Positions 3,343 through 50,436 of a DNA stretch of 64,000 bases are shown here, piece after piece; the first letter of the stretch is position 1; the number at the start of each line of letters is the position of its first letter. The notes under the pieces are model-generated. The model searched no databases and was not told where the DNA came from. It saw only the letters and a program-made list of their open reading frames with translations. The stretch is from Amphibalanus amphitrite (lineage: Eukaryota), in assembly GCF_019059575.1 (NCBI RefSeq), contig NW_024881729.1, positions 544,406 to 608,405 of the forward strand. Direction: 5' to 3'. The position numbers and the translations under genes were made by a program.

Positions 3343-3551
3343 GTGGGTCTAGATTGTAGAGAGTGAGCGAGGGAGGGCGTGGGTACCGGAGGACAGAGCA
3401 GTACTGAGGTCGTCAGGTAGTTAGAGGGAAGGGAAAGAAGAGAACGAGAGGGAAACACTACACGTCGCGAATGTTAATGATATCGCACATCGGCATGTTT
3501 TGCCTGATGATTCTTCATTAGTTGACATAATCCGTGTTTGTCTGTTTACAG

Positions 3552-18093: not shown

Positions 18094-18539
18094 TACGTGC
18101 AGACCATCACAGAAACGTCAATTCTTCAGCAACCGGCTATAATTTCAAGATAGTTTCTTCACAAAATGTAGAACAACGTTGAAGCTACCCGCCAGGCACG
18201 AAACAATAGCCCTAACCTCTTCGGTTAGTTTAGGAAAGCGTCTTGAAAATAATCAAGATATTGATTCATCACGGCGGCTAATCCCGGCGAGAATCAATAT
18301 TTTGATTCCGCAAACAGCTGGCTAATCATTATTTTGATTCTGAAATCAGCTGGTTTATCAATATATTGATTCTGCGAACTGACTTTCTGCAGACGTACTT
18401 CACTCTTCAAATTGACTTATGGAATGTTTCTTGTGTGCAAATAATGCAAATTCAATAAATTCATGAAGATATTATCAGCACAGGATCGTGTAATTTTTTC
18501 TAGACCTTATTCCCACGGTAGACCAGGGATTTTCAGCAC

Positions 18540-21507: not shown

Positions 21508-21602
21508 TATTGATTCTATGCCCATATATGGTCAAAGCTCCGCCCACTAGAATCAATATTTTGATGCCTCCATATTTTGATTCCCGCCGCCTAGTTTGCC
21601 CA
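21508..21602 (-). repeat. 95-bp inverted repeat, right copy
   Basis: Perfect reverse complement of 17999-18093. Confidence 0.85.
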
Positions 21603-21779
21603 ACTGATATGGCGATTGGCGTCTATTTCAATTTTGATTTTAACCAATGACATTTTCAGTGTTAAGTGTGAATTGATAATTGTGGGCACACACTATTAAA
21701 TGTGAAGATGAAGTCCAAGTAGATAAAAATCTAACGACTGGTCAGAGGTGCTGACGTATCCTAGCATTTTCGGTACCTA

Positions 21780-30128: not shown

Positions 30129-30296
30129 GGTATTGGGGTGCACCGAAGTCTGCAGCGGACCAACTCTGCGCCCAAGGTTGCCATTCCGTTCGTGGTGGCC
30201 GGTGGCCGGCGCCTCGTGAAGGAGCTCCACATCAACTACAACATGCGCGAGGTGCTGGCCGTGCTGGCTGGCGACCTCAACTACCATCCGGATGAT
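30129..30296 (+). CDS. UBL/IQ-domain gene (IQUB-like), first identifiable coding exon (..NSAPKVAIPFVVAGGRRLVKELHINYNMREVLAVLAGDLNYHPDD)
   Basis: CTCCAG acceptor and GTGAGT donor, phase 0. Upstream exons were not identified. Confidence 0.5.
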
Positions 30297-30493
30297 GTGA
30301 GTGGCGTGGGGGCACAGGACGGCGGCTAAACGGGATAAATACAGCCACTGTTCGGTGACAGTCAATGTTACAGTTAAAAATGTTACGATTGTGGTTGTTT
30401 GTGCAATTCTACGTAGACAGTGATGTGAGGTTACTTGTCAGATCGTCTTAGTCTGCTTGTGACCTTCCATCCTCGTTTGTGATTGTCTCACAG

Positions 30494-30671
30494 CTGGAGA
30501 TCTACCTTGGCACGGAGCCGGTCTCGGACAGTCTGGTGCTGGCCGGACTGGACCTCGAACAGCCCGGGTTCGTGCTGAATGTGCTGGAGAGGATCGTGCG
30601 CCGGCGACCGTCCTCGTCTGACGGCCCGGGAGCGGGCGGCGGCGGCGTGCGGACCGTCACCGTGCACACAG
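30494..30671 (+). CDS. IQUB-like, exon (LEIYLGTEPVSDSLVLAGLDLEQPGFVLNVLERIV..; ubiquitin-like fold continues)
   Basis: CTCACAG acceptor; G|GTCGGT donor, phase 1. Confidence 0.5.
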
Positions 30672-31160
30672 GTCGGTCCCCGGAGCTTCCGCCGTGCAGG
30701 TTAGTCACAGTGAGCTGCCTTGTGGAGGGTAGGTCTTAGGGTCCCCTCTCGTAGACTCGGTTGTGAGCTATGTTTTGGGATTAGTCCTTTGTAGTTGCAT
30801 GGTCTTTGCCCAATCTTTTACTACTTTTTGGTAGATCTGCACATGAAATACCGTAGAATTGTACCGTAGAAGCGTGGAGTCATACCGGACACTTCAAGTT
30901 GGTGTCTCAGTCTATTGACCGTTCTAGATGGTTTGATTTGCTCAATTAATGACTAAGCATTCCCCATTCATGCCTCCTGGTAAAGGTAAGCCTTATGCAA
31001 ACGCGAATGTTGTTCATTCATGGTGCTGGCTACTTGGGGTGCCTCTCAACGACAGTTTAATGACACTTCCTAGGGTATCTATACCTTACGAACTGAACCA
31101 ATACCTTGCCCTGAGTTCAGCGTGACATATCTGACCTATTCGCCACTCTGTCCTGTGCAG

Positions 31161-31319
31161 AGGGGGAGGACGGCGGACGGCGGACCATTTCGGTGGCTAT
31201 CGAGCCGGGAGACGGCGAGAAACCGTTCTTAGGCGGATACCGGGACAAACGGGACGGCACCGAGTACCTGCACGCCACCGCGCAGACCTACACTCGGCCC
31301 TTCAGAAACTACGCCTATG
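31161..31319 (+). CDS. IQUB-like, exon (EGEDGGRRTISVAIEPGDGEKPFLGGYRDKRDGTEYLHATAQTYTRPFRNYAY)
   Basis: CTGTGCAG acceptor; G|GTGAGT donor. The phase joins the previous exon. Confidence 0.55.
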
Positions 31320-31709
31320 GTGAGTCTTTCAGTTCGGAGCAGCGCGGAGTGCCGCGGACTCTACCGGCAGCTACGTTGAAGTTATGCTTATCGCGTGTTA
31401 AACCGTCGGTGGCCCGTGTCCCTGACTGGTTCCCACTATCCGTGTCTTTAACCCTCTGTGAACCTCGTGCTAGACTGTGATCCGTGTTCAGGACCGTGTC
31501 CGTGCCATTTTTCTGTGATCCGCGTCTGTGACCGTTGTCCGTGAACCATGTGCTATCGTGATCTTTGACCCATATTCTCGAAATCTCGACCCAACGGGCC
31601 TGTCCTCGACCCACGCCTGTTCGCAACTCGTGTCAGGTCGTGAATTGTCAGCGCCATTGATCTTAACCGTCCGTTCGTCCAGAGCGCCACGAGCGGGACG
31701 CGCAGACAG

Positions 31710-31864
31710 CATGGGGCCTGCCGGCGGCCGTGCAGACGAACCGCGACACGTGCACCCAGATGCCCAAACCGGGTGTGTGGCAGGACCACCGGCGCGAGCG
31801 GGTGCTGTCCTACAGCGGCGCCTACCAGACGGCTGACGAACTGCTCCAGCTGCGAACCGATAAG
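31710..31864 (+). CDS. IQUB-like, exon (..QTNRDTCTQMPKPGVWQDHRRERVLSYSGAYQTADELLQLRTDK; acceptor position uncertain)
   Basis: AAG|GTGAGA donor at 31865. The only phase-compatible acceptor is GACAG at 31709, which is a weak site. Confidence 0.35.
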
Positions 31865-32301
31865 GTGAGAGCGGCGCCGCGCTGGGTCTTGCACTGGCGG
31901 CATGCTCACAAACAGTATTACAGCCATGGTGTGGGATTTTGGAAATTATAACTAGCTTCGCTATGTTTAACCATTCATAAACAATCAAGTACCCTCACAT
32001 ATTTCGCTTAGCTTGTAAAAATAATTTATTTTGACACTTGACAGTGGTCTGGTCCATATCAGCGACAATCTGTGCCTCTCGCTGATATGCCGTGCCCCCC
32101 CCCCCCCCCCCACACGCACCAACAGTCTTCCCCTCGCCCTCACAGGTAGTCGTTCCTCACAAGCACTGGCGTCGCTGGCTGGCCCGTGTGACTGTCTCCC
32201 CGCGTCTGACTATGCTCCCGCTGTCTCTGCAGGCGATCGTTCTGCAGAAGTACTGGCGTCGTTTGTTGGGCTGTGTGTCTCTCCCACAGACAGGCCCCAA
32301 T

Positions 32302-34073
32302 CCGACGACCAAATCCGACACCTCGGGACGAAGAAGGCGCCAGGACCGGACCGGGTATGCACCGAACACCTGCGGCACTTCGGACCGACGGCCTACCGGA
32401 CCCTTCTGGCACTCATCAACAGATCGTGGTCCAACCTCGAGACGCCCGCCTCATGGCGACGGGCGACCATCATCCCTATCTTTAAGGCCGGCAAAGACCC
32501 CAAACAAGTGGGCAGCTACCGCCCGATCGCGCTCACGAGTCACATCGCCAAGCTAGCGGAGCGGATGATCGCGGCCCGGACGACCTACCTCATCGAGCGA
32601 GACCGACTGGTGCCCCCCGAACAGGTCGGGTTCCGCCGCGGGAGGTCGGCGGAGGACAGTCTGGCCCGCTTGGTCCAAACGGTTCAAGATGGCTGGAATC
32701 GCCCCAAGCCGAGACGAGGCCCGGAGGATGGCGTGACGGCGGACCGCTTTGTCCTCCTGGCGTTCGACTTCTCCCGTGCCTATGACACGATCGATCACCG
32801 GATGTTGCACCTGAAGCTCCTCAAGCTCCTCCCCAGATGTCTCGCGACCTGGAAATTCCGGTTCCTTCGCGGCAGGCGGGCCCGCGTAGAGGTCAACGGC
32901 GCGCACAGCAGCGAGCGCGTGTTCCGCGCGGGCCTGCCGCAGGGCTCGGTCCTGGCACCGACCATCTACACGCTCTGGGCGGCGGACCTTATCGAGACCC
33001 TGCGGAACGCCTCGGACCGCACGGACGTCCTGATGTATGCGGACGACAGGGCCACACTGAGCGCTGGAGCCACCGTAGAGCTTGCGGTGGCTCGCGCCCA
33101 GAAGTCGGCCGACGCCCTGGCCCGATGGGCAAGGCACTGGAAGATGTCCATCGCCGGACAGAAGACCCAGGCGCTGCTGCTGACTCAGCGGAGCAGGGAC
33201 GAGCGCGGCGTGCAACTCCTGGCGAACGGCACGCAGGTCACCGGTGGCACCAGCCTACATCTTCTGGGGGTGACCTTCGACAGACTTCTACACTTTAAAG
33301 ACCACTGCGACTCTCTGCTGCGGCGGAAGGTCCGGCCGCGGACGGCACAGCTGCGGAGGATGACCGGCCGGGCCTGGGGTCTCCGCGAGGCGCAGCTCAG
33401 GACAGTCGCGAACGGGTATGTCCGGGGAGCCCTTGAATACGCAGCGGGTGCCTGGCTCCCGGCCGCGTCCCCGTCACACGTTCAGCTGGTGGAGCGCGAG
33501 CTGCTGGCGGCAGCCCGGGTGGTGACCGGATGCCCAAGGTCCACCCCCAGGGATCCCCTGCTGGCCGAGGCTGGCATCCCTTCAGCATGGTCCACCAGGA
33601 AGACGCTGGCCGCGCGAACGCTCTGCCGAGCGCTCGCCCTGCCGGAGGACGACCCTCTTCGCCGCGTCGCGGAGGCCGACCCACCCACTCGACTGCGGTC
33701 TACCACCGGCTGGCGACAACTGGGGCGATCGGCGCTGATCGAGGCGGGCGCCGAGGGAGTGACGGTGGAGCCGCGCCTCGAGGTTCCCCTCCTCCCGTGG
33801 ACAACCTGCCGCCCGATCGCCTTCAATCTGGACGTGGGACCCGGCGGTCGTCGAGCCTCCTCCAACGAGACGCGACGAGAGGCCGCGCGGCAGCACCTGG
33901 CGGCGCTCCCAGCCCAGGCCACGTGGATTTGGTCCGACGGCTCTGCGGACGCTGGGGTCAGGCGAGGCGAGGGGGCGGCGCCATCATCTTTACCGCGTCG
34001 GGGGAGACTCTCGAGGTTGAGGTGGTGGCGGGAGACCTCTGCTCCAGCACCCGTGCGGAGCTGTTCGCCCTGA
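32302..34073 (+). pseudogene. LINE RT-domain reading frame (frameshifted relative to the downstream RNase H/CCHC part at 33957-34801)
   Basis: The two overlapping track ORFs (680 aa and 423 aa) together cover RT, RNase H and the zinc finger. Confidence 0.6.
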
Positions 34074-34837
34074 GGGCGGCGCTGGAGCGGGTCCGGGATG
34101 AGCCGTCCCCCGCCCCGCTGGTGGCGTGCTCTGACTCACGAGCCGCCCTGAGCCTCCTCAGCGCGGGAGCGGCCGCCCAGACCTCCACTTTCGGCGCGGC
34201 GATCTGGAGGACGCTGCTGGACATTGCCGAGCGCCGGCAGGTGACCCTGCAGTGGGTCCCTGCTCACTGCGGGCTGGCGGAGAACGAGCGCGCTGACGCC
34301 CTGGCCAAGCAAGCGGCCACCCTGCCCCAGGGCGCCGTGCCCTCGGACGCTCGGCCCCTGACACGGGCAGTTCATCGGACGACCACACGTCAGTGGCGCG
34401 AAAACTGGCCCGACTCCTTTTTCAAGGCTATCTTCGGGAGCACCCTGCCGCTCCCCATCCCCGGAGAGGACCGAGAGGCCGCCATCTCGGTGCACCAGTG
34501 GAGGGTGGGCCACTGGGGCCGCTCGCTCCAATACCTGCACCGGATCGGCCGCCACCCCTCCGTGGCATGCCTGCAGTGCCCCGATAAGCGGTGCCCCACG
34601 GCGCTCTGCGCCGTGTGCCGGGAAGAGGCGGACGTGCCGGAGCACGTGTTGCTCCGCTGCCCGGCCCTCGCTGGCGCCCGCCTGCGGCTAACTGGCAGCA
34701 TTCACGTCGACCCGTCGCGGCTGCGGGACGCCGACCTGGTGGCTGCCTTGGAGGCCGGCTACCTTCGCCATAGGGAGCCTCTCGGCTATGGTCCTCCGTA
34801 AGGAGGTCCCAGGGGGAACAACAACAACAACAACAAT
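32302..34837 (+). mobile_element. 5'-truncated non-LTR retrotransposon (LINE) with RT, RNase H and a C-terminal CCHC; I/R1/LOA-type domain order; frameshifted
   Basis: RT motifs KAPGPD, FDFSRAYDTIDH and YADD. The RNase H block (TRAELFALRAALE) is in a different frame after a roughly 1-nt indel near 33960-33980. CCHC is CLQCPDKRCP..C..C. A (CAA)6 tail sits at 34819-34836. A 10-bp target-site duplication AGGCCCCAAT lies at 32292-32301 and 34838-34847. Confidence 0.75.
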
Positions 34838-34959
34838 AGGCCCCAATTGTCTGACGATGTTCCCTCTCCACCACAGGCGATCGTTCTACAAAAATACTGG
34901 CGCCGCTGGTTGGCCCGTGTTACTCCCCTGTCTGACGATATTCACGCTCTCCACCACAG

Positions 34960-35079
34960 GCGATTCTTCTACAGAAGTACTGGCGCCGCTGGCTGGCCCG
35001 TCGCCGGGTACAGCGGATGGCCAGGGAGCGGGATGTCGTGCTCCAGTGGATTGTGGACGACGCAGAACGGCGCAAACAG
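34960..35079 (+). CDS. IQUB-like, IQ-motif exon (AILLQKYWRRWLARRRVQRMARERDVVLQWIVDDAERRKQ)
   Basis: CCACAG acceptor; CAG|GTCAGA donor, phase 0. It matches the IQ consensus and is the last member of a tandem array of degenerate copies. Confidence 0.6.
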
Positions 35080-35322
35080 GTCAGATACGGGTCATTGGGT
35101 CATCGGAGGTCACCAGAGACTCCGGAGTGCGGCATTGCAACGTTAGTCGAGTGACCAACGCTCACACTGAACACTAATTGACCTATCTTAGATTTAGTGT
35201 TGTTAATGTTTTCTTTGTAGCTTATCTCTCTCATGGCGATCATTTCCTCCTCTTATCTGCAGCTGTTGCTGTAATTCTGTTCGTTATTGCCGACGCTGAC
35301 CTGTATTCGGCCTGGGTCCCAG

Positions 35323-35589
35323 GCTCGGCTGAAGCGTCGCGCCGGAGTCGTCGAGCGGAAGATGGACCCCAAGAGCAAGAACGACTTCGACATTCTGTTC
35401 AGCTCGCTGGAGGCCTGGCGGAAGAAGGCCATCGCCTACTGTTACTCCACCAAGTCGGGTGGTGAGCTGAAGGCGGCGCTGTGTCAGCTGCTGGAACAGG
35501 AGGCGGAGATGCTGAAGGCCATCAACGGCCATCAGAGCCGCGCGGCCGCCTGCGGACAGGCCAAACGCATACACCGGCTGCTGGAGAAG
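35323..35589 (+). CDS. IQUB-like, exon (ARLKRRAGVVERKMDPKSKNDFDILFSSLEAWRKKAIAYCYSTKSGGELKAALCQLLEQEAEMLKAING..)
   Basis: CCCAG acceptor; AAG|GTACGT donor, phase 0. Confidence 0.6.
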
Positions 35590-35901
35590 GTACGTGAAGT
35601 TTGGATTGGTCTAATAGGTACTATGATTGAACTCAACATGTAATGATATTTCAGATCAACGCTCTTGGTTCGGGAAAATAGTTATCGAATCATAAGTCGA
35701 CGTTGCATGGACACTTTTGAATGGCACTGCCTACCACAGGCCGGCTCGTCAAATCAAACTTGCATTGCGTCGTTTAAAGCAGGGTCAGGCATACGTACTT
35801 TGTGTTGCTGCCTACTCCTCTCTATGACAGCGAGTCGCCTATGCTGTGCCTGTATCAGCAGTTACACTGTGTCTAAGCCCTTTACTCCCCTCTCTTGACA
35901 G

Positions 35902-36066
35902 ACGCAGGCACCTCTGCGCTGGAAGGGCCGTGACGGCGAGCCCATTTCGGTGGACAACTCAGTGACGCTGTGGGCGCGTCAGCTGCGCGACATTCACACC
36001 TCGCTGACCCTGCCCGGGCTGAGCGCCGACGAGCGGTCAGACATCTTGGCCACGCTGGCCGACCTG
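35902..36066 (+). CDS. IQUB-like, exon (TQAPLRWKGRDGEPISVDNSVTLWARQLRDIHTSLTLPGLSADERSDILATLADL)
   Basis: TTGACAG acceptor; CTG|GTGAGA donor. Confidence 0.6.
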
Positions 36067-36407
36067 GTGAGACTGGATCGGACTTGGGAGGGTGAGAAAA
36101 TCAGCGCACGATTACGTGTATTTTGCGCAATCATGTGACAGGTGTCAATACGTTGAGTTATGGAAGTTGTCAGGTTTTGGGGGGTGGGACCATATGGTGG
36201 GCATCTTTTTGTTAAAATGTGTTGTTTCGGTTACCGTGAGCACTGTTGAATCTGTTTTGGTGTTCATATTATAAGAGGAGTAATACGTTATCATGCGGAG
36301 TGAGTTTGGTAACCATCATTTTATTCGGTCGATTGTTAGCCAGTCAGATGTGCGACATATCCGCGCTTCTCCCTCCTATTCGGCTTCTAACGCCCATCCG
36401 TCCGCAG

Positions 36408-36593
36408 ATCGCCGGCCTGCCGTTCTCGGCCGATAACCACGAGCTGCGGGACCTCTGTAAGCGCGAGATGGACCTGCTGTCGCGCGGGGTGACGCCGCGG
36501 CACCTGGCCGGCCTGAGACACCGCTCCCTGCAGCTCTTCTGGCGACTGCTGAGGGATGTCAACTTCAACCCGGCCTCGGCCAAATGCCAGAAG
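36408..36593 (+). CDS. IQUB-like, exon (IAGLPFSADNHELRDLCKREMDLLSRGVTPRHLAGLRHRSLQLFWRLLRDVNFNPASAKCQK)
   Basis: CCGCAG acceptor; AAG|GTGCGT donor. Confidence 0.6.
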
Positions 36594-36858
36594 GTGCGTC
36601 CTAGGCCACAGTGGCTAGGAGTTCTGCTGGGTCTGGCATGGCTAGCTAACAGGGTCCACTTTTGATACTATCCTGGCTGATAAAAATGTACATAATTTAC
36701 CGCGTTTTTTCATGATGTTTGCTAATACTCTATGATGCTTACACATGTTGCTTCACTGCCTGTAAATTTTCCTCATCTCGCCTTATTGCTTTTGGATGAT
36801 GTCTGCCGTCACCATCACTGTCCCCGACTGACGTGTGCCTTGTTTTGACGTGCGTCAG

Positions 36859-36971
36859 GTACCGCTGGACCCAGAGTCGATCCGCGGTGACGTCAACACG
36901 TGCACCTCGTGCCACCGCTGTCTGCCGAGACACCAGTTCCAGGTGGACGCCAGCGACGTTACCCTGAGGAG
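36859..36971 (+). CDS. IQUB-like, exon (VPLDPESIRGDVNTCTSCHRCLPRHQFQVDASDVTLRR)
   Basis: CGTCAG acceptor; AG|GTACGT donor, phase 2. Confidence 0.55.
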
Positions 36972-37251
36972 GTACGTCAGAGCGGCGGGGAATTGGTGGG
37001 TGTGGGAAAGTGCAGTGGGATGGATATTGATTTAGGGGTCGTGAATGAACTGATGTCCCATATCAGACTTAAGGACTTATGCCGTCATAAATAATGCAGC
37101 TAGCGAATGCCATTATTGTCTTATTTTTTACAGCCTAGTGGTGACTTGTGCGCAGTACAGAGTGCCTCTGTCGTTGGCTTCAACTCTAGTTAGATGTGTA
37201 ACCACTAACCACCAACCATCCTTACCGCTCCGTCCCGCTACTTTCCCTCAG

Positions 37252-37387
37252 GTGCCGTATGTGTGAACAGCTGCAGAACTGGGCGCTGCGGCGTCACGAC
37301 AACAACGTGCTCGGGAAGATGCTGGAAGAGCTGCGCCGTGACGAACAGAACCGGTCACCGGGCTCGGCAGCCGTCTGCCTCATACAG
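37252..37387 (+). CDS. IQUB-like, exon (RCRMCEQLQNWALRRHDNNVLGKMLEELRRDEQNRSPGSAAVCLIQ)
   Basis: CCCTCAG acceptor; CAG|GTCAGC donor. Confidence 0.55.
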
Positions 37388-37796
37388 GTCAGCGGAGGAT
37401 TACTGACGGGTCAGTGGTACTCTAGTATATGTGAGAGAGGACAGCCTGCAGTCGAAGTACGGGGAGCGTGCGTGGGGTTTGGTCACTGGCAAGTCTTTCC
37501 TCGCTACATACGGTGTGAGAAAGGTGTACGACTTTCGCTACCCATGTGTGTGCGAGGCCTACGTGTGACTTATGATCTGGGTATGGGACAGGTTAATGAG
37601 TCTGACACATGTATTTGTTTCTGTGACAGGAGTCTGACTTCCGCCACCTGGTGCTGTCGCTGTGGGGCGGCCAGTCCTGTCTGACATACCACCTCTGTCT
37701 GTGTGTTACAGGAGTCTGACTTCCGTCACCTGGTGCTGTCGCTGTGGGGCGGTCAGTCCTGTCTGACATACCACCTCTGTCTTTCATGTGTTACAG

Positions 37797-37982
37797 GAGT
37801 CTGATTTCCGTCACCTGGTGCTGTCGCTGTGGGGCGGCCAGTCCTGCCTGAGCGCCGATCCGGACCTCTATGAGCTGCTGCTCTGCCGCTGGGACGTGGA
37901 ACAGCCCTGGACGCCTTGGAACTGCGTCCTGCTCACCAGAGACGAGACCGAGGCGCACTACAAGCTCGGAAAGCCGCAGCAG
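37797..37982 (+). CDS. IQUB-like, exon (ESDFRHLVLSLWGGQSCLSADPDLYELLLCRWDVEQPWTPWNCVLLTRDETEAHYKLGKPQQ)
   Basis: TGTTACAG acceptor; CAG|GTCAGT donor. Two degenerate tandem copies of the acceptor plus exon start lie immediately upstream, at 37621-37796. Confidence 0.6.
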
Positions 37983-38278
37983 GTCAGTGATGACACACCT
38001 GGAGGTGCGCGTGCGTTCTTAAAGTGGATGACGATCCAGGAACGAGACGGCTATACCAATCATGATTTCAGTGTCTCGTTATACTTCTCGCGTGACCAGT
38101 GTGTGCTTTGTCCAAACTCTCCCACCTCCAGCTAGCAGTACGGCCTGTAATATATGTATCAGGTACCGGTGTGCTCCTCTCCTTTCTTCCCAGTAGCGGT
38201 ACTGACGAGTGTGACCGTACCTCATCTCCCTCACAGCGGTACTGACCGTTTTGTGGCTGTACTCCTCTTCCCCGGCAG

Positions 38279-38449
38279 CGGTACGGGCCGGAGCTGTGTC
38301 AGCGGGTGCGTCTGCGGCACGTGGCCGCCAGTCGCTACTTCTGCCACCTGCCGGCCATGGTGGCCCGCCTGGAGGCCGGGCTCACGGAGCGCGAGACGGG
38401 GCCGCCGTCACCGGGCGCCTGCCGCCGGCCGGCCGCCGCGCCCGCCTGA
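38279..38449 (+). CDS. IQUB-like, terminal exon (RYGPELCQRVRLRHVAASRYFCHLPAMVARLEAGLTERE..*)
   Basis: CCCGGCAG acceptor; TGA at 38447-38449. It is preceded by two pseudo-copies of the acceptor plus exon start. Confidence 0.45.
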   Translation, partial: RYGPELCQRVRLRHVAASRYFCHLPAMVARLEAGLTERETGPPSPGACRRPAAAPA

Positions 38450-39083
38450 CCTGCCGAGAGGCCACCACCGCCACCCGGGACCTCCAGCTGACGGAGAAAA
38501 CCGGGCGGCACGGACAACGCACCGCTCCGACGCGCCTTGTGATAAATTAGCGCCACGTCAGGCCGGGCTCGAACGAAGCGAACGTAGTCGAGAGATCTGA
38601 CTAGTCATGTAAATCGGTGTCTGTGGCTGCATGTTTGTGCCAGGTGATATAATGCACGGGTTTGGCGCTTGCGTTGGCGGTCTCTCGTTATTTTGGAGGG
38701 GTGTATTGTGGCATCTCTGCTGGTGTAGTAAATATCATGCTGATAGATATCCTGCAAAATCGTGTATTCCATGCCAAGCAATTGTCGTTTTGTCTGCTTG
38801 TCTTTTGTCCTTGGACCAACAACGCCGCATTTACTCAGTTGAATAAAATTGCGTGCTTTGCCTATTTGAATTTTCACAACAAAATCCAGAACCAGGGAAA
38901 AGCCACGCAGCTTTTGAAAGCTCTCATCACCAGAGGTTAGTTTCATTCTCTTCAGATTACGCTTGTCGAAGTGCTAGGACAACGGTGAAAGCTCAACCGA
39001 TCATATATCCCGCGTGTGTTCTCCACTCGGATTCTTCCACAAAAGTTGTAGACCGACGCAAACGCCGATTGTATAATAGGCAG

Positions 39084-39320
39084 TGTGGCTTGATAGTTTC
39101 CTCGCGTTGTGTCTTTTTCTTAATAAACTTAATGACTTAAATGAGAAACAACTAAGAACTTCAAATTCTCTGTCATTTCTGTATTTTCTTAACATTTTCA
39201 CTGATAAGCCATTTTTATGACTCACGCGTCCTCACTCTGGGGCACCTCTCAGCCACTCACATAAAATAAGTTCATTCACCCGCCACACTTTCAATAAAAA
39301 CAGTTCTTTTCTCATCAACA
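39084..39320 (-). repeat. BEL/Pao 3' LTR (237 bp)
   Basis: Differs at one position from the copy at 45052-45288. Confidence 0.9.
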
Positions 39321-39332
39321 TTTCCCCCCGAC
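39321..39332 (-). promoter_or_regulatory. Polypurine tract of the BEL/Pao element (minus strand TCGGGGGGAAA), immediately 5' of the 3' LTR
   Basis: Purine run abutting the TG start of the LTR on the element strand. Confidence 0.5.
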
Positions 39333-39404
39333 ACTGAATGAGCACGTCATTCAGAACACTACGTGCCGGAACATCGACCGGCCATTCATGAGCTCTCAGT
39401 TACT

Positions 39405-42400
39405 TCAGTTGTCTAGCTCCAGTCGCACGATCTTGGTGACCGGTCGTTTGTACACACCCTTCCGCGTGTTCACCTCCACGACGCGGACGAGGCCGTCCTG
39501 ACCGGGGAACGTTCTGGCGACTCTGCCCAGGGGCCACGAGCCTCGAGGCACCGATGAGTCTGCGATCAGCACCATCTCTCCTTCACGCAGATTGCGTGAC
39601 ATCTCCGTCCACTTCTGTCTTGTCTGAAGACTTGGTAAGTATTCTCTGATCCAGCGCCGCCAGAACTCTGTGTTCAGCTGCTGGAGTCGACGCCACCTTT
39701 TTCTGGCGTTCTCGGGCGTGTCAGCGTCTTCAGAGCAGATATCCAGCTGGGTGTGACCGAGCAGGAACGCTGCCGGGGTGAGCGGTGGCGCATCAGACGG
39801 GTCAGATGAGACCGCGGTCAGTGGCCTGGTGTTCAGAAGCGCCTCCGCGCGGCAGAACGCGGTCATCAGTTCTTCATCTGTCAGATGGGCGGCTTCTAAA
39901 GTTCTTCGTAGTGCCCGCTTCGCACTTTTTACCATCGCCTCGCAGCCACCATTGAAATGAGGCGCTCCCGGAGGAATGAACTTCCAGTCTATGTAGAAGT
40001 GAGCGGTTTGTCTCTTGATCACTTCTTGGTCCAGAGCTCCGACTAGCTTCCGTAGCTCGCGACTTGCTCCAACAAAATTCTTCCCGTTGTCGGAGATGAT
40101 CTCAGACGGCCTCCCTCTTCGAGCGATGAATCTCAGGAATGCTCGCAGAAAACTGTCAGTGTCGAGTCCGCAGGCCATCTCCAGGTGCACCGCTCTACTC
40201 TGTAAGCACAGGAAGACGCAGAGGTAGCGTTTCAGCCGAGTCTTCCCTCTTCCCTGTCTGGTCTCGAACGGTCCTGCGAAGTCCACCGCGCAGTGACTGA
40301 ACGCGCGGCAGGAATACATCACTTCAGCTCCAGTCTTCGGCGCCATCATCTGCTTCTCTGGCTTCTTGGATCTCTTGATGCACTCTGTACAAGATCTGAT
40401 GCATTTCTTGACTTCTTCTCTGGCACTTATCACCCAGAACCGCTGGCGAAGTTCCGATATGGTGTGCTCAACGCCGAGCTCGTGTTCACCCTGCTCATGC
40501 ACATGACGTACCAGGAGACGGGTCACTTGATGGCCCTTTGGGAGAAGCACTGGGTGCTTCACATCAAATGGCAAGTCGCTTCTCTGGAGGCGTCCGCCGA
40601 CTCGCAGTAGTCCATGGTCATCTACAATCGGACACAGTCTGCGGATGCTGCTGCTTTTGAAGACTTGACCCTGTTTGCTTTCACCGGACGGGACTGCGAC
40701 TTGTGCTTCCAGCTGTCTTCGCTCCTTGGCAAAACATTCCTGAGCTCGCAGGAGCCAGAATGTCTCTGCAGAAGACATCTCCCGCCTGTCCAGTGATGAT
40801 GATGTGCCGTCGTTGTGTTCATCTGGGCACTCTCCTCTTGTTAGTCTCTTCAGTTTCTCGATAAACCTTAGAACCCACGCCGTCACCCTGACCAGCCTCA
40901 TCCAGCTTGAGAAGTGACTTGGGTGTAGCCGGAGGTCATCTTGAGTTTCTTTGATCAGAGTGCTGTGTACTGTCTTCGTCTTCTTCATCTCGCTCCTGTC
41001 GAATGGCTCTGATTGTAGATCTCTTGGCATTGGCCAGTTTTCTCGCTCTTCCACAAGAAATGCAGGGCCCGACCACCACAGGTCACTGGACTTCAGAACT
41101 TCCAGTGTTACGCCTCTGCTGGGAAGATCTGCTGGGTTTTGATTTCCGGGAACATGCTGCCATTGCTCAGGATCTGTCACTTCCCGAATCTCTGATATCC
41201 GATGCGCCACGAACGACTGGAACTGCTTGACTTCATTTCTGATCCAACAGAGCACGTTGATGGAGTCAGACCAGAACAGCACATCTGATATCTGGATCCT
41301 GAATGCTGCACAGGCCTTCTTCGCCAGTCGCAGACCCAGGAGGGCAGCCATCAGCTCAAGACGAGGGATGCTGACCTTTCTAGAGCGTGGGGTGACTCTG
41401 ACTCTTGCTAGAGCCAATCTTGCGGCAACGCCATCTTCACTTGTGGTCACGACGTAGACTGCGGCTGCATATGCCTGCTCAGAGGCATCTGAGAAGGCGT
41501 GTAGCTTCTGAGCTGTAGCCTTGGAGAAGGGGTGGATGCATCGGGGCACTAATAAAGAGCTCACGCGCTCCAGCTCCGTCACCCATTCCGCCCACTTGCG
41601 CTTCATGTCGGCGGGCAGCTCATCGTCCCATTGAAGACCTCGGGACCAAGTTTCCTGGAATAGGATCTTGCTTCGGACGGTAAATGGACTCATCAAGCAT
41701 AGAGGATCGAAGATGGCTGCGAGCGTCTTGAGACAGATCCTCTTGGTAGGCTTTGGCGTCATGTTCTTCTGAATGGTAGCATTGCTGCTAATGCTCAGCT
41801 TGTCTTCATCCGCATTCCAAACGACTCCAAGTGCATTGGCACGAGTTTGAGGGCCATCTTCGATAGTGAAACTTGACTCTTTGGCTCGCTCTTCTTCTGG
41901 TATGCTGTCCGTCACTGAGCTGCTACTGCTTCTCCATTTTCTTATCTTCATGCCGGCCAACTGCATCAGCTCTGTGAGTTGCTTTCTGGCTTCCTTCGCT
42001 TCATCTTCACTTTCGAATGAGACGAGGGCATCGTCCATGTAGAACGAGTCCTTGATCGTGTTGGAAGCGAGAGGATATCGTGAAGCGTGCTGCTTGGCAT
42101 TCTCCTTCATCGCGAACTGGGCTGCAAATGGTGCTGCAGCGTTTCCGAACAGCCACCTTTGTGCTTCATAGATATCTGGCTCTCTTCCAGCTTCGCAGTT
42201 GCGCCAGAGCACACGATGGAACTTCTGATCACCATCGGGTAGCTTCACCTGGAGAAACATCTCCGCGACGTCTCCAGTCAGAGCGATCGCATGACGGCGA
42301 AATCCCAGCAGGACTTCTATCAGGTCGTTACAGATGGATGGTCCAGGATAGAGTTCATCGTTCAGACTTCTCCCTTCAAATTTTGCAGCTGCATCGTACA

Positions 42401-44963
42401 CTACCCGTATCTTCGTCGTGGCGCGATCTTCCTTTACTACCGGGAAGTGGGGCAAGAACCAGCCGTCTAAGGATGCAGCCTCTCTATCTTCAGGTACGAT
42501 CTTCTTAAGGTATCCTTTAGATACGTAATCTTCAAAATTCGCATTGTACTTTTCTAGAAGAGACCTGTCTTCATTCTTTATCAGGCTCTGCTCAGTTTTT
42601 CTTAATCGGCTCACAGCGTATCCGAAGTTTCCACTCAACTCGGGCTGATCACGACGCCAAGGTACTGCTACCTCATATCGCTCGCCGTCGTACTTGAGTG
42701 AGTCTTGTGCCTTCTTAAGTGCGGACTTTTCCTCATACGAGAGAATCTTCTCATTCTCGTTTCTCACTCCGAGTAGTTCCAAGTCGGTCATAGCATGGAT
42801 GGCGTCTATTTCATCCTGATTGTTCACTGATACGTGAGTCCGTAGCGTCTTGCTGAAGTTTTTCTTCTTCGCATCTTCCACAGGCCCGAAGGCTGTCCAG
42901 CCGAGCGGGGTTTTCACTCCCACAGGTTCATGTGCTTCGCCTTGTCTTGTCTCCAGAGGAAGGAACAGCGACGTCGTAGAAGCCGTCAGTCCGATCAGCA
43001 TATCGATCCCCTGTCTTCGTGAAACGTTGGGGAAAGATATGTTCTTCAGATGGTTCCACTTGCTCTTCGTCATGTTCCAGTCAATTTTGGCTGAAGCGCT
43101 GGAGAGGTCATTAATGACGTACACGCCAATGCTGGTCTTGAACGGGCCGATTGTGGAACACATTTCCACCTCCGACTTCTTCATGTTCACTTGACTGCTG
43201 CCTTCCACTGTTCCCAGCTCAAACTGCTCTGGAACACCCTGGAGACCCAGCTCCTTAGAAGCGGCGTCCGTCAAGAAACTGGCATCCGAGCATGGATCCA
43301 GCAGGGCGTTGACGATAAGAGATCGTCCATTCGCCTTCACCTTCACGGGAACTGTCTGAAAAACGACGCGGCCTGAGTTCTGAGTCGCTGAAGCAGCGGT
43401 CCGATGAGTTAGCTCCCCTTCATGCTGTTCCTGAACTGGCAGTCTGGCAGTAGTATGACTTTGTGTCATCGCAGGGGTAGAATCACCGCGAGTCGCGTGG
43501 AGAAGACTATGATGGCTGCCACCGCATCCTGCCACTTGACATCCTGGGAACTTCCTGCAGCTTAATCCACGATGAGTGCCAGCCAGACAGCGAAAACATA
43601 TTCGCTTCGTCTTGCAGTAGCTGTACCGGCTGCCGACTGTCCACTTCTGGAACAGTGGGCAATCTGGAAGTTGGTGTTCTTTCTCGCAATAGAGACAGCT
43701 TGATGCCCCATGTTGGCTCTGTCTCTCTGTCTTGGTACTCCAGGTCTTCTTCATTTTCCTGGGAGAGTTCGTCTCTTCCTTCTTCATTCGGGAGCTGCTT
43801 GACATTTCTAGAGCTTCTTGTTCGTATTGGGCTTCTTCTGTGAGCCAGGTGGCGAACATCTTCAGATTGTCCTTCGCTCTTTGTCCTTGGATCCATCTTC
43901 GGTAGTTCTTCAGAAATGTCACATGTAGCTTTTCTTTGACGAGGATGTAGTAGGCGGACACGTCGGCCAAATCGCCTGCTGAGCCATGCTCTTCAAGATT
44001 TGTCACCAGGCTTTGAACCCGATCAGCGAGTTCCTCCAAATCTCTCGTAGCGCCCGGACGGACTGGCCTGATGCTCCGAATCTCCTCCAGCTGATGCCTG
44101 ATCCGTCTGCTGACGCCGCCGTACTTGCGTTCCAGCTCTGCCATGGCCTTCGTGAACCCAATGTCTGACGGTCTGTACCTGTCTACTAGTTTCAGAGCGT
44201 CACCTGCGAGACAGTTCTTGAGTTGCATCATTTTAAATTTTCCAGGAACGTTTTCGATGGTTACAAAGGCGTCAAACGTAGCTCGCCAGTCCTCGTATCT
44301 GTTTGTCTCGCCTGTAAAGACTGGAAGCTGTGGTCTCTTCAGTCCGTAGTTCGCCCAGTCGACCTTCACTCTCTCGTTATCTCGTGGCGACCGAGTGCTG
44401 TGACGTCGACCTTCGACTTCAGGTGAGGCTGCTTGCTCTTCTGGTTGCTGAAGCGCATCAGTTTCTTCAGTGACTGACTGATGCGACTCCGTTTCGTGCC
44501 TCAGGGCCTTCGTCTCGTTGCTACGCTTGTCTAGAGCTGCAGAAACTACAGTTCTCACTGATTTATTTGCCAGCCGCAGAGTCTTGGATATTTCTCGCTG
44601 AATATCGTCGTATTCTTCCCACGGATCTTCATCCTCCTCTTGTCCACTAGACATCTTGTTGGCCATCTCTTCCACTATGTTCAACAACTCATCGCTTGCC
44701 TTGTCTAGCTCAGAACCTATCTGCGAGATCTGCGAGACAGTTAGCTCACTGGTTTCAATCAGTGAATGCAGTCTGTTCTGTCCATCGCGTAGATCCCGAA
44801 GTAGTCTCGACTTCTTTCTTCTTAAATTCACTTCAGTTGTCCTCACATGGCTTTCTGTAGAAGTGGTAGTTGACATTGTCCCTTCAGTTCCATCCGTTAC
44901 TTCTTCTTGATTCTGACTGGTTTCAGCTTCACCTTGCTGCGTCTTCTTGCGCCTGTTACCCAT
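39405..44963 (-). CDS. Gag-Pol polyprotein (1852 aa) of the BEL/Pao element
   Basis: Uninterrupted ORF with diagnostic motifs: PQLPVFTGE..W..F..F (Gag DUF1759), CLYCEKEHQLPDC, LLDPCSDASF (protease), FYMDDALV (RT), DASEQAYAAAVY (RNase H), and H..H..C..C plus DFAGP..E (integrase). Confidence 0.85.
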   Translation of the reverse strand: MGNRRKKTQQGEAETSQNQEEVTDGTEGTMSTTTSTESHVRTTEVNLRRKKSRLLRDLRDGQNRLHSLIETSELTVSQISQIGSELDKASDELLNIVEEMANKMSSGQEEDEDPWEEYDDIQREISKTLRLANKSVRTVVSAALDKRSNETKALRHETESHQSVTEETDALQQPEEQAASPEVEGRRHSTRSPRDNERVKVDWANYGLKRPQLPVFTGETNRYEDWRATFDAFVTIENVPGKFKMMQLKNCLAGDALKLVDRYRPSDIGFTKAMAELERKYGGVSRRIRHQLEEIRSIRPVRPGATRDLEELADRVQSLVTNLEEHGSAGDLADVSAYYILVKEKLHVTFLKNYRRWIQGQRAKDNLKMFATWLTEEAQYEQEALEMSSSSRMKKEETNSPRKMKKTWSTKTERQSQHGASSCLYCEKEHQLPDCPLFQKWTVGSRYSYCKTKRICFRCLAGTHRGLSCRKFPGCQVAGCGGSHHSLLHATRGDSTPAMTQSHTTARLPVQEQHEGELTHRTAASATQNSGRVVFQTVPVKVKANGRSLIVNALLDPCSDASFLTDAASKELGLQGVPEQFELGTVEGSSQVNMKKSEVEMCSTIGPFKTSIGVYVINDLSSASAKIDWNMTKSKWNHLKNISFPNVSRRQGIDMLIGLTASTTSLFLPLETRQGEAHEPVGVKTPLGWTAFGPVEDAKKKNFSKTLRTHVSVNNQDEIDAIHAMTDLELLGVRNENEKILSYEEKSALKKAQDSLKYDGERYEVAVPWRRDQPELSGNFGYAVSRLRKTEQSLIKNEDRSLLEKYNANFEDYVSKGYLKKIVPEDREAASLDGWFLPHFPVVKEDRATTKIRVVYDAAAKFEGRSLNDELYPGPSICNDLIEVLLGFRRHAIALTGDVAEMFLQVKLPDGDQKFHRVLWRNCEAGREPDIYEAQRWLFGNAAAPFAAQFAMKENAKQHASRYPLASNTIKDSFYMDDALVSFESEDEAKEARKQLTELMQLAGMKIRKWRSSSSSVTDSIPEEERAKESSFTIEDGPQTRANALGVVWNADEDKLSISSNATIQKNMTPKPTKRICLKTLAAIFDPLCLMSPFTVRSKILFQETWSRGLQWDDELPADMKRKWAEWVTELERVSSLLVPRCIHPFSKATAQKLHAFSDASEQAYAAAVYVVTTSEDGVAARLALARVRVTPRSRKVSIPRLELMAALLGLRLAKKACAAFRIQISDVLFWSDSINVLCWIRNEVKQFQSFVAHRISEIREVTDPEQWQHVPGNQNPADLPSRGVTLEVLKSSDLWWSGPAFLVEERENWPMPRDLQSEPFDRSEMKKTKTVHSTLIKETQDDLRLHPSHFSSWMRLVRVTAWVLRFIEKLKRLTRGECPDEHNDGTSSSLDRREMSSAETFWLLRAQECFAKERRQLEAQVAVPSGESKQGQVFKSSSIRRLCPIVDDHGLLRVGGRLQRSDLPFDVKHPVLLPKGHQVTRLLVRHVHEQGEHELGVEHTISELRQRFWVISAREEVKKCIRSCTECIKRSKKPEKQMMAPKTGAEVMYSCRAFSHCAVDFAGPFETRQGRGKTRLKRYLCVFLCLQSRAVHLEMACGLDTDSFLRAFLRFIARRGRPSEIISDNGKNFVGASRELRKLVGALDQEVIKRQTAHFYIDWKFIPPGAPHFNGGCEAMVKSAKRALRRTLEAAHLTDEELMTAFCRAEALLNTRPLTAVSSDPSDAPPLTPAAFLLGHTQLDICSEDADTPENARKRWRRLQQLNTEFWRRWIREYLPSLQTRQKWTEMSRNLREGEMVLIADSSVPRGSWPLGRVARTFPGQDGLVRVVEVNTRKGVYKRPVTKIVRLELDN

Positions 44964-45051
44964 ACTTAAATCTCGACTTAATATTACTTTAGAATTACAT
45001 TACGTTACCTAATATCGTAACTCCGAATATCTGGGTCACTTTGCACTAAAA

Positions 45052-45288
45052 TGTGGCTTGATAGTTTCCTCGCGTTGTGTCTTTTTCTTAATAAACTTAA
45101 TGACTTAAATGAGAAACAACTAAGAACTTTAAATTCTCTGTCATTTCTGTATTTTCTTAACATTTTCACTGATAAGCCATTTTTATGACTCACGCGTCCT
45201 CACTCTGGGGCACCTCTCAGCCACTCACATAAAATAAGTTCATTCACCCGCCACACTTTCAATAAAAACAGTTCTTTTCTCATCAACA
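45052..45288 (-). repeat. BEL/Pao 5' LTR (237 bp)
   Basis: Differs at one position from the copy at 39084-39320; followed by an 88-nt leader before the Gag ATG. Confidence 0.9.
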
Positions 45289-46167
45289 GGCAGTATATTC
45301 CAAAAATACGCGTACTGCGTAGAAAACTACGATGAAATATGATAAGCGATGAGATTCTCTAGCAATCCCAGCGTATTTCACGGGGAATGGTAAGCGATAT
45401 TTAGCCAAAAAGCTCAGCGTGCAAATCTAAAACAGAACTACGAACGGGGTGTGCAACGTACGAGCTTAATTAAAAAACAACGCACATCAATTATTGATTC
45501 ACTGCGGGTGCATTGGACGGACTAAATCAGCAGCCACCAGCACTCCAGATGAACTCGCAAGCATGCGAGTTGCGAATGGATTACACAAACAGCTAGCTAC
45601 GTCCCAGCACGCTTCCAGAGTCGACACATTTGGTGACATCAATTACATACCAGCAGTAATACCTCGGCTATCAGAAGCAACCCGACAAGTTGGAATGTTA
45701 CAAACAGTCTCGATAACGCTGACTGCCGGGGAGATTCAGACAAAATGGATGTTCGGCAGAAAGCCGATGGACGGACGTATTTACACAGCGCTGGAGACAA
45801 CAAACGGACGGACGGACGGACGGAGGCGCGAGCCTGTTGCCCGCCTCGATACAAGCCTCAACACTGCGCAGAACGGGCAGGTAGATACATGAGGGAGAGA
45901 AAACTCCGTTTCCTCAGAACACGTTCTGTGGATCGGTCAACAGTCAACACCTATCCCGATCGTCTGAAAGTAGCAGCGACGACCAGAGCACTCATCAGCA
46001 ACCGATCACTAAAAGCAGTAGACCCAGCCGCTACCACATCTCTCCCAACGGCGGCAGGGCAGGCCGAGTCCCAACTGGTGACCGTAATACCCATCACTGC
46101 CTCGGGCACCCAGCGCTAGCGCCGCGTGCCACCGATGAGCACTCGAAACCATGACCGCACTCGGCGC

Positions 46168-49070: not shown

Positions 49071-50422
49071 CAGGGTGTCCCAGAATTACCCGGACATTTA
49101 TTTTCTGGCTAAAAGTACGATTACGCTCGATTCTAATGATATACAAGCATCATACTTTTATAAGATATCCCTAAGCTATCAAGCTTGGGGACTGTGTGCT
49201 TTTGGTGGCCGGTAACAACTCGAGTCAAGTATTATCTAGAGTCAAGTAAGAGTAGTCCTTTTCCGTTTTCAGCTTAAGCCACTTATAGGCAACGATGGTC
49301 AATCAACTCCCGTTTTCAACTTTGTAAACGGACTTTCGGCATGGTTTTCGCTGGAGAGCTTCAGCAGCTCATCTGCAAGCAGTTAGGATTGAGCAAAGCG
49401 CAATTATATCAGCTAACGAAGCCAGAGAGAGCAAGAGATAAACCTGATTGACAAGCTTGGGCTCGGCCATAAAGGGCCATGCACCAGTTGTCAAACGGGT
49501 GGTTGCTTGTCATGGACAACAAACGTCACTGATCTAGCTAAAAACTAGCAAAACGATAGATCAGGATTATCTAAAGAACATCAGTCTACTTTCCACCACT
49601 ATCTTCGCAAAATTTTGGAATTTGGGGTCCCTCGCCTGAAAAAGATGCGAAAACTACGGGAAAAGCAGCGAAAATCACTACAATTCATCCCAAAAATATA
49701 ACATATACAACAAAAATTATATTGAAGCACACTTTGTGGTCTAACGAAGGTATTCTGTCATTTGAACCGCCCGAAAAAGGCTTGTGTGAACGTCAGATGG
49801 CTACAACGCCCCAACAGCAGAGACGGCCAGGCACCCGTCGAAAATCAAATTGTGAGACATTTTGAGCCACCGTGCACTCATTGGGCTTGATATGATGGCC
49901 CAACGACAGCCGTTAGCACAAAGTGCTACTGCGGTAATATTCTACCAGTAAAAAAACTGGATGCCGTAAACCAAATGGCCATGAACGGGTTTGTTTTGGA
50001 AATCAAATCTATTGGAAGCCAAAGGTCCCGCCATGTTCAGACATGGAGCTTCTCCACTTCAGATGTAAAAAACGCGGCAAAAGTGGTGTAGGCAGCAATT
50101 TTTGTTTTGGGGGATAAAGCCTTATGACCCGGGAACACTTTGATGTTAAGTTTATCTTATATGATCGTATTATCCTCCGGCAACAGGTCAAAGAAAACAG
50201 GCCTTCGCCCAGTTTCGGGAGAGCCGTAAAACAACTGAGACCAGCAATGGCTGGCATTTTCAATCATTGTCGGCTGATCTTGTAACAAGCGTATCTATTG
50301 CATGTGCTATTTCACAGCCACCCTAGTTGACTATATAGGACGACAAAAAGAAAAAAGCGCAATCATGTTTGCCTTATTTTATACGCTAATTAACAATGTC
50401 CGGGTAATTCTGGGACACCCTG
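49071..50422. mobile_element. Tc1/mariner-like nonautonomous element, copy 1 (1.35 kb), with a TA target-site duplication
   Basis: Perfect 28-bp TIR CAGGGTGTCCCAGAATTACCCGGACATT at both ends. Flanked by TA on both sides; no long ORF. Confidence 0.6.
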
Positions 50423-50436
50423 TAGATGACAATGTA

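Follow-up and report, generated by a model that had tools for sequence, protein, structure and literature searches.

Is the repeat-flanked sequence just past IQUB in the barnacle Amphibalanus amphitrite a retrotransposon that has moved recently, and could it still move by itself? The preliminary description of this locus had presented it as a very young, apparently autonomous BEL/Pao element. We examined this reading in the window, that is, the whole 64,000-nt stretch of A. amphitrite DNA, which is GC-rich. Positions 39084-45288 are occupied by an LTR retrotransposon, 6,205 bp long and in minus-strand orientation. We hold with high confidence that this is a full-length element of the BEL/Pao superfamily, recently inserted in A. 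amphitrite and antisense to IQUB. The coding exons of IQUB extend over 30129..38449 on the plus strand (stop codon 38447-38449; AATAAA at 38842), and the aligned exon cores match the A. amphitrite protein XP_043230429 with 100% identity. RefSeq lists two IQUB loci for this species, XP_043230429 and XP_043246184. The LTR starts 634 nt after the stop codon, in line with the distance of ~630 bp given previously. To the right of the element, Pfam searches of the ORFs at 45.3-64 kb revealed nothing informative. Repeats are known to account for 44.7% of the A. amphitrite genome, and LTR elements for ~3.6% of the assembly (PMC8220330).

The boundaries of the element are sharply defined. The 3' LTR (39084..39320, minus strand, TG...CA) and the 5' LTR (45052..45288, minus strand) are direct repeats of 237 nt each, and they differ at a single position (C at 39162 and T at 45130), as had been claimed. 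The 5' LTR also contains a U5 motif, ACACAACGCGAG on the sense strand (45069-45080, minus strand), which is conserved in the clade. The GGCAG target-site duplication is likewise intact, its left copy (39079..39083, read on the plus strand) adjoining the 3' side of the element and its right copy (45289..45293, plus strand) the 5' side; such a perfect 5-bp match would arise by chance with a probability of 1/1024. The reconstructed empty site (...GTATAATAGGCAG|TATATTCC...) formed a continuous unique sequence. Using the rate of 3.1e-9 applied to barnacles (PMC8220330), the age of the insertion was estimated as 1/237/(2 x 3.1e-9) = 0.68 Myr, with a Poisson 95% interval that is wide (0.02-3.8 Myr) because it depends on a single LTR difference. 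Within this interval, we infer from the sequence that the copy is probably younger than about 1 Myr, although gene conversion or polishing of the assembly might, in principle, have made the LTRs more alike than they would otherwise be. The proposed youth of the insertion is supported by the one LTR difference, the perfect duplication and an intact ORF.

This ORF is a single gag-pol frame of 1,852 aa on the minus strand (39405..44963), running from the ATG at 44963 to the TGA at 39405 with no internal stop, just as the preliminary description had it; a stop-free run of this length has a chance of ~(61/64)^1852, roughly e^-89. All of its domains lie on the minus strand. The Gag part comprises a core matching Pfam DUF1759 (aa 216-362; 43878..44318) and three zinc knuckles (aa 423-489; 43497..43697), namely CX2CX3HX4C starting at aa 423, CX2CX4HX4C at aa 456 and C..C..HH.LLH at aa 475, whose Cys/His columns are invariant in an 11-sequence alignment. 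The pol part follows the order PR-RT-RNase H-IN (aa 541-593, 883-1009, 1159-1279 and 1479-1675, respectively). Its reverse transcriptase (RVT_1; 41937..42317), recognized by both Pfam and motif, carries YMDD at aa 975-978, and is followed by the BEL/Pao-specific 'Peptidase_A17' region and then RNase H (together aa 1073-1279; 41127..41747) with the residues D1159, E1203, D1233 and D1279. The integrase (39939..40529) consists of an HHCC zinc domain (aa 1479-1533; H1489/H1494/C1525/C1528) and a DDE core (D1561/D1625/E1675), beyond which lies the C-terminal DUF5641 domain found by Pfam (aa 1755-1848; 39420..39701), which is typical of BEL/Pao. Thus, every one of the motifs reported before (YMDD, DDE and zinc knuckles) was found with its conserved residues, and the full set of catalytic and zinc-binding residues is retained across the 11-sequence alignment, down to 26% identity. 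These data suggest that the barnacle copy is still able to supply all the proteins.

The assignment to BEL/Pao was made from the Pfam families together with the lists of homologues and their Pfam architectures, and it was borne out by the set DUF1759, RVT_1, Peptidase_A17, Integrase_H2C2, rve and DUF5641. The superfamily-specific families scored above the curated cut-offs, with 163.8 bits for Peptidase_A17 (E-value 4e-48), 35.8 bits for DUF1759 and 116.1 bits for DUF5641 (E-value 9e-34), and all the close homologues of the polyprotein show an identical BEL/Pao Pfam set. The element is of the ordinary BEL/Pao type, very fresh and structurally complete, and does not represent a new class of element.

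The retropepsin-like protease (aa 541-593; 43185..43343, minus strand) deserves separate consideration, since its active-site motif reads LLD556-P-C-S559, whereas the usual form is D-[ST]-G-[AS]. Its Asp_protease_2 match in Pfam reaches 20.1 bits, under the 24.3-bit cut-off, and a profile match to the EIAV protease (E=2.8e-4) aligns D556 with the catalytic Asp. DPCS is kept in seven clade members, down to 48% identity. A damaged protease, with DPCS substituted for DSG, was ruled out by this conservation and by the alignment of D556 with the catalytic Asp of EIAV; DPCS is a lineage trait and not damage, because it is conserved across the clade.

The first homologues of the polyprotein came from Tara Pacific coral metagenomes. 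Together with the GC-rich window, this origin raised the possibility of a dinoflagellate or another protist as host, which would have been remarkable for BEL/Pao; the identity of the IQUB exons to the A. amphitrite protein rules out such a non-metazoan host. The closest recorded protein, on an unannotated contig of a Tara Pacific metagenome (L001), is 78% identical, while the nearest named protein, from Sycon, is 36% identical. Comparison of the barnacle ORF with L001 gave a dN/dS of 0.13 (dS 0.97), which shows that the family is under purifying selection; the lineage has therefore been propagating as a functional element. No other copies, fragments or solo LTRs of the family were present within the window, no identical polyprotein was on record in an exact-protein look-up, the exact LTR-PBS junction had 0 matches in the JGI metagenomes, and the databases searched gave no sign of a high-copy family. 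Since no second copy was found in the window, the protein records or the JGI metagenomes, any activity of the family in the barnacle genome is presumptive. The ongoing transposition and the polymorphism in populations that the preliminary description had considered possible and probable, respectively, are conjectures. This copy is a promising candidate for an element that has moved recently.

The part of the element that bears most directly on autonomy is the primer-binding site (PBS). It was located at 45029..45048 on the minus strand (TAGTGCAAAGTGACCCAGAT, sense strand), 3 nt past the 5' LTR, from which it is separated by a TTT spacer (45049-45051). The preliminary description had noticed that no TGG start follows the 5' LTR, and indeed the PBS begins with TAG (TAGTGC), owing to an A at 45047. 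All five relatives with this junction assembled read TGG (TGGTGC...) 2-3 nt after the LTR, and in the 78%-identical L001 the TGG is followed by 17 PBS bases identical to those of the barnacle copy; among L001-L006, the PBS is conserved at the canonical place in the relatives covering the site, i.e., all except L004. Because these five relatives read TGG, TGG is, on the comparative evidence, the ancestral state, and the barnacle copy carries a G-to-A change at PBS position 2. The A at this position does not pair with C75 in the CCA end of a tRNA, whichever tRNA is used, which makes the competence of the copy in cis doubtful, and the change could impair priming in cis. Consequently, the term 'autonomous' holds for the coding capacity, with an intact ORF and all the catalytic residues, as a statement about structure only, and is weakened by a PBS that reads TAG where the relatives have TGG. 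Self-priming or priming from within a tRNA, as explanations of the missing TGG, are unnecessary, as the relatives carry TGG at the equivalent position.

A search for the primer tRNA with ARAGORN found no tRNA genes, either in the window or in the 46 loci scanned, and an Rfam search of the window returned no match. Among human tRNAs whose sequences were taken from papers, tRNA-Tyr matches the PBS perfectly in distant relatives only, and tRNA-His matches the PBS of the barnacle clade partially, with an indel; no primer tRNA was thus assigned by these comparisons. The PBS of the clade follows the pattern TGGTGC + 1-3 nt + GTGA.CC.GAT, in which the second block looks like a complement to the T-arm/acceptor junction of a tRNA.

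At the other end of the internal region, the polypurine tract (PPT; GGGGGGAAA, sense strand) adjoins the 3' LTR at 39321..39329 (minus strand), and a G-rich tract occurs at the equivalent place in L001-L006. Both the PPT and the LTR ends of the barnacle copy are intact. A pre-PPT hairpin, CTGAATGA-cgtgc-TCATTCAG, with a perfect 8-bp stem lies 4 nt upstream of the PPT (39334..39354, minus strand). Using a stem-length screen with internal controls, we observed a 7-9-bp hairpin next to the PPT in the barnacle element and 13 of 22 relatives (14/23 BEL/Pao elements examined). The stems of different elements are unrelated or compensated in sequence and equal in position, with 9-13 nt between the end of the 3' arm and the LTR.

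It is conceivable, albeit rather unlikely in our judgment, that the barnacle-associated BEL/Pao clade uses non-canonical cis elements for reverse transcription, consisting of a bipartite PBS and the pre-PPT hairpin. In such a PBS, a 6-7-nt match to the tRNA 3' end may give way, after a bulge of 1-3 nt, to a second block that complements the acceptor/T-arm, while the hairpin may define the plus-strand primer and may be conserved by structure, not sequence, in distant BEL/Pao elements. If the PBS is bipartite, the recently moved barnacle copy could be primed despite its TAG variant. The PBS TGGTGCAAAGTGACCCAGAT would be canonical if a barnacle tRNA ends in ...ACTTTGCACCA; otherwise, a bipartite or bulged arrangement becomes more plausible. 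No description of either feature was found in the literature searched.

How far, then, do other explanations account for the same data? The most serious one accepts the youth of the copy and holds that it is already dead in cis: the TGG-to-TAG change, acquired after insertion or inherited, would block efficient tRNA priming, and the copy would at most provide proteins in trans. The TGG present in all five relatives, including L001 with its otherwise identical PBS, speaks for it, as does the behavior of retroviruses and Ty elements, in which mismatches at the pairing with the 3'-terminal CCA lower initiation. However, mu*T of ~0.0021 per site gives a probability of ~0.6% that the 3-nt TGG changed after insertion, so that inheritance from a parent that itself transposed is at least as likely; moreover, other retroelements tolerate PBS mismatches at reduced efficiency, and the single base may be a sequencing error. 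On balance, we regard death in cis as possible and somewhat doubtful.

The remaining two explanations concern the youth itself. An assembly artefact, in which a multi-copy family was collapsed or polished to its consensus, would render both the LTR identity and the intact ORF artificial, and the repeat content of this genome (44.7%; PMC8220330) speaks for it. Nevertheless, the junctions display a clean 5-bp duplication around an empty site of continuous unique sequence, the LTRs are not perfectly identical, and the databases searched lack the sign of a high-copy family, which together make this explanation very unlikely. Alternatively, an older insertion may only look young after homogenisation of its LTRs, given that the LTR argument rests on one datum, the single difference, and that LTR-LTR conversion is known from other genomes. 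But LTR conversion would not have kept a 5.56-kb ORF free of stops and frameshifts or the duplication perfect, each of which independently indicates a recent insertion; accordingly, we give homogenisation hardly any credence. A recent insertion of a structurally complete BEL/Pao element remains our preferred reading.

An element of this structure would be expected to move through the standard LTR-retrotransposon cycle. Transcription would start in the 5' LTR (45288->45052), and the transcript would encode one gag-pol polyprotein comprising Gag with zinc knuckles, the retropepsin-like protease, reverse transcriptase, RNase H and integrase. Synthesis of the minus strand would be primed by a tRNA bound to the PBS, which lies 3 nt past the 5' LTR, and that of the plus strand by the polypurine tract abutting the 3' LTR. 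A 5-bp staggered cut at integration would finally produce the GGCAG duplication.

BEL/Pao elements are numerous in arthropod genomes, and the finding is routine among them. Its value lies in providing, for a barnacle family not described before, a clean and complete reference copy, which can be used for repeat annotation, for checking whether the family still moves in a species whose populations are very large, and for asking if an antisense LTR promoter ~200-630 bp past the IQUB 3' end affects IQUB. If a larger curated set confirms them, three further features may be of interest to specialists in retroelements: the variant PBS, the DPCS motif of the protease and the pre-PPT hairpin with its conserved structure.

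Three known systems help to place the barnacle element. Ty1 of Saccharomyces has an extended bipartite PBS, in which a short complement to the tRNA 3' end is accompanied by further boxes downstream that can pair with the T arm. The split PBS pattern of the barnacle clade is similar, with its pairing deduced from sequence comparison alone, whereas the element itself belongs to a different superfamily. Ty3/gypsy elements (Metaviridae) share with it the domain order PR-RT-RH-IN and the replication logic. Unlike them, however, the barnacle element has no above-threshold RVP/retropepsin, RT_RNaseH families or chromodomain in Pfam, and the BEL/Pao-specific families match strongly. Within the BEL/Pao superfamily, which has been surveyed (PMC3118150) and includes Pao of Bombyx mori, BEL and roo of Drosophila, Sinbad, Suzu, Tas and Cer7-12, the barnacle element stands apart in its DPCS protease motif and in a PBS with no contiguous 18-nt tRNA complement, while many distant relatives possess a perfect tRNA-Tyr PBS. 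In other respects it conforms to this superfamily, having flanking TG..CA LTRs with a 5-bp duplication, a single gag-pol ORF in the order Gag(zinc knuckles)-PR-RT-RH-IN, Peptidase_A17, DUF1759 and DUF5641 all together, and a metazoan host, here an arthropod.

The direct-repeat search recovered one 237-nt repeat pair (39084-39320 and 45052-45288), and a base-by-base comparison showed that the two LTRs have TG...CA termini, differ only at LTR position 79 (C at 39162 versus T at 45130) and are flanked on either outer side by the pentamer GGCAG. Between them, a single ORF of 1,852 codons runs without interruption on the minus strand from the ATG at 44963 to the TGA at 39405. The single LTR difference, the intact target-site duplication and the uninterrupted 1852-aa Gag-Pol ORF claimed in the preliminary description were thus all recovered. 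Read in element sense (minus strand), the 5' LTR (45288 to 45052) is followed by a TTT spacer (45051-45049), a primer-binding site (PBS) region (TAGTGCAAAGTGACCCAGAT, 45048-45029) and, downstream, the gag-pol ATG; after the stop codon (39405-39407), an 84-nt 3' UTR ends in a polypurine tract (PPT; GGGGGGAAA, 39329-39321) directly adjoining the 3' LTR. A search of the 64-kb window found no further trace of the element, be it a second copy, a fragment or a solo LTR.

Pfam firmly places the encoded protein in BEL/Pao: DUF1759 in gag (residues 216-362), RVT_1 (883-1009), Peptidase_A17, the 'Pao retrotransposon peptidase' (1073-1234, 163.8 bits), Integrase_H2C2 (1479-1533), rve (1556-1666) and DUF5641 (1755-1848, 116.1 bits) were detected, a set including Peptidase_A17 and DUF5641 that bears out the earlier assignment. 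When the protein was aligned with ten homologues (identity down to 26%), all three Cys/His knuckles (aa 423-489), the YMDD motif (975-978), the acidic RNase H residues D1159, E1203, D1233 and D1279, the integrase HHCC (H1489, H1494, C1525 and C1528) and the integrase DDE (D1561, D1625 and E1675) were kept throughout; the catalytic motifs named previously (YMDD, DDE and zinc knuckles) are therefore both present and conserved. Comparison with the closest relative (P0001/L001, 78% amino acid identity) gave a dN/dS of 0.13 (dS ~0.97), which is the signature of a lineage propagated via functional copies. The LTR pair (K = 0.0042, 1 difference in 237 nt) dates the insertion to 0.68 Myr by T = K/2mu, with the barnacle rate applied in PMC8220330 (3.1e-9 per site per year); calling the element 'very young' is fair, though the exact Poisson 95% interval is wide (0.02-3.8 Myr). 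An exact-protein look-up returned no identical polyprotein on record, and the closest protein cluster (78% identical) came from a Tara Pacific metagenome, which may derive from coral-dwelling barnacles. The LTR-PBS junction had no match when JGI metagenomes were scanned.

The actual protease lies at about aa 541-593. Here the Pfam Asp_protease_2 match fell below threshold (20.1 bits versus a cut-off of 24.3 bits), and a profile of this region from ten family members matched the EIAV protease (E=2.8e-4), aligning LLD556-PCS opposite LLD-TGA. The active-site motif reads D-P-C-S (aa 556-559, window 43296-43307) versus D-[ST]-G-[AS]. A lesion in the protease was considered and ruled out, because the alignment showed DPCS in all seven close-clade members, down to 48% identity, so that it is a trait of the lineage maintained by selection; at this position DDAS, DDGS, DPAS or DAGS occurs in relatives farther away.

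The PBS was compared with those of five related elements from metagenome contigs with the junction assembled. The window copy has the spacer TTT followed by TAGTGCAAAGTGACCCAGAT; the corresponding sequences are TTT and TGGTGCAAAGTGACCCAGAT in L001, TT and TGGTGCATGTGATCCGGATTCG in L003, TCC and TGGTGCATGTGAGCCGGAT in L006, TT and TGGTGCCAGTGATCACGGAT in L005, and TT and TGGTGCAAG... in L002. TGG opens the PBS in all five relatives, which places the PBS start at 45048 and makes TGG the ancestral state, whereas the window copy reads TAG, in line with the earlier remark that a TGG start was missing. This G-to-A change at PBS position 2 (45047) is mismatched to the CCA end of the tRNA. In the retroviral mechanism, the tRNA templates the plus-strand copy of the PBS, so TGG in the parent gives TGG in the new copy. 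Either the parent RNA already carried TAG or the A was acquired after insertion; given the LTR divergence, the chance of a post-insertion change within TGG is estimated at ~0.6%. Whichever its origin, it is uncertain whether this copy is competent in cis, and the description 'apparently autonomous' holds for the intact ORF and conserved catalytic residues but carries the TAG as a caveat. As for the primer, no tRNA genes were found in the window or the scanned loci. In many distant BEL/Pao relatives the PBS is TGGTCCTTCGAGCCGGA, which perfectly complements the 3' end of tRNA-Tyr (taken from the human Tyr probe of bioRxiv 10.64898/2026.01.26.701835); TGGTCCTTCGAGCCGGA(T) was seen on metagenome contigs in L018, L033, L035, L038-L040, L047, L051, L059, L060, L062, L065, L075, L078 and L081. 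The close clade instead shows TGGTGC + 1-3 nt + GTGA.CC.GAT, which is similar to the tRNA-His complement TGGTGCCGTGACTCGGAT only if an indel is allowed.

At the other end of the element, a perfect 8-bp hairpin, CTGAATGA-cgtgc-TCATTCAG (39354-39334, minus strand), lies 4 nt upstream of the PPT. From a pool of 79 distant relatives, the window element and five close relatives (3' junction assembled), 23 elements had a placeable 3' LTR start, and 14 of these 23 had a perfect 7-9-bp hairpin ending 9-13 nt before the LTR and abutting a G-rich PPT (carriers listed: the window element, L001-L006, L019, L025, L036, L038, L039, L045, L063 and L077). Eleven different stems, unrelated or compensated in sequence, were found (CTGAATGA, TTGAATT, TTGGATTGA, CCTGCTGC, TAAATGC, ATTAAAAC, TAAGACC, AAAGGAC, GTACAAA, CACACTG and TTGACTGA), and equally long stems occurred in at most 3% of the 45-nt control windows drawn from these elements. 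The hairpin may act in cis in the priming of the plus strand; the more novel reading, in which this clade combines a non-canonical PBS with the pre-PPT hairpin, seems unlikely. The literature searched held no description of such a hairpin, an absence that is not proof of novelty. A 12-nt motif, ACACAACGCGAG (sense), also occurs in both LTRs close to their U5 ends (45069-45080 and 39101-39112). Its distance from the 3' end of the LTR is 17-42 nt, and five relatives of only 48-78% protein identity share it unchanged with the window element; possible roles are a U5 element, an integrase-binding element or part of a structure in the PBS region.

The neighbouring host gene is IQUB: the ORF 36246-36665 matches the Pfam IQUB domain, and the joined candidate exons retrieve the Amphibalanus amphitrite IQ and ubiquitin-like domain-containing protein, to which the exon cores are 100% identical (Pollicipes, 76%). 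The tblastn gene map places the gene at 30129-38446 (plus strand), with the stop codon at 38447-38449 and an AATAAA at 38842, so the insertion lies 634 nt beyond the stop, agreeing with the 630 bp reported before, and probably ~200 nt beyond the transcript end. The element is antisense to IQUB, and LTR read-through could yield antisense RNA across the IQUB 3' end. Two IQUB coding exons, the IQ-motif exon and that encoding ESDFRHLVLSLWGG, are overlapped by 82-83-nt tandem duplications (34848-35001 and 37622-37851; 89-93% matches), which appear as repeated tblastn matches. Within an IQUB intron (exons 31682-31867/34957-35085), a stretch of ~66% GC at 32031-34801 (plus strand) has ORFs that overlap one another (680 and 423 aa) and match RVT_1 (4e-24) and RNase_H (5e-13), and looks like a non-LTR (LINE-like) retrotransposon.

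Several other features were observed in the window. A near-perfect palindrome of ~2.7 kb (22020-24706), with nested inverted-repeat arms 93-99% complementary and outer parts of 14-16/30-nt tandem repeats, may represent either a foldback-type element or an artefact of assembly. Two 94-nt inverted repeats (18002-18095 and 21517-21610), 100% complementary and 3,421 nt apart, have the appearance of terminal inverted repeats bounding a young DNA transposon. The region 49152-51713 is a tandem duplication (period ~1,354 bp, two copies ~75-85% identical). An open frame of 1,180 codons (3538-7080, plus strand; ~70% GC, 33/66/99-nt tandem repeats), whose sole Pfam match is weak, TFIIA-like and low-complexity, may be a gene for a repetitive, low-complexity protein or an artefact of base composition. 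The window is consistent with the published Amphibalanus amphitrite assembly (49.8% GC, 44.7% repeats and 3.6% LTR elements; PMC8220330).

BEL/Pao elements are widespread across metazoans, arthropods included (PMC3118150), and a crustacean survey counts them among three LTR superfamilies (PMC3587641); no paper describing barnacle BEL/Pao families was found in the literature searched. Every defining BEL/Pao feature that could be tested is present in the window element; for the tRNA-complementary PBS, a partial resemblance to tRNA-His was seen. Overall, the element is a young LTR retrotransposon of an ordinary type, a new element of a known superfamily rather than a new kind of element.
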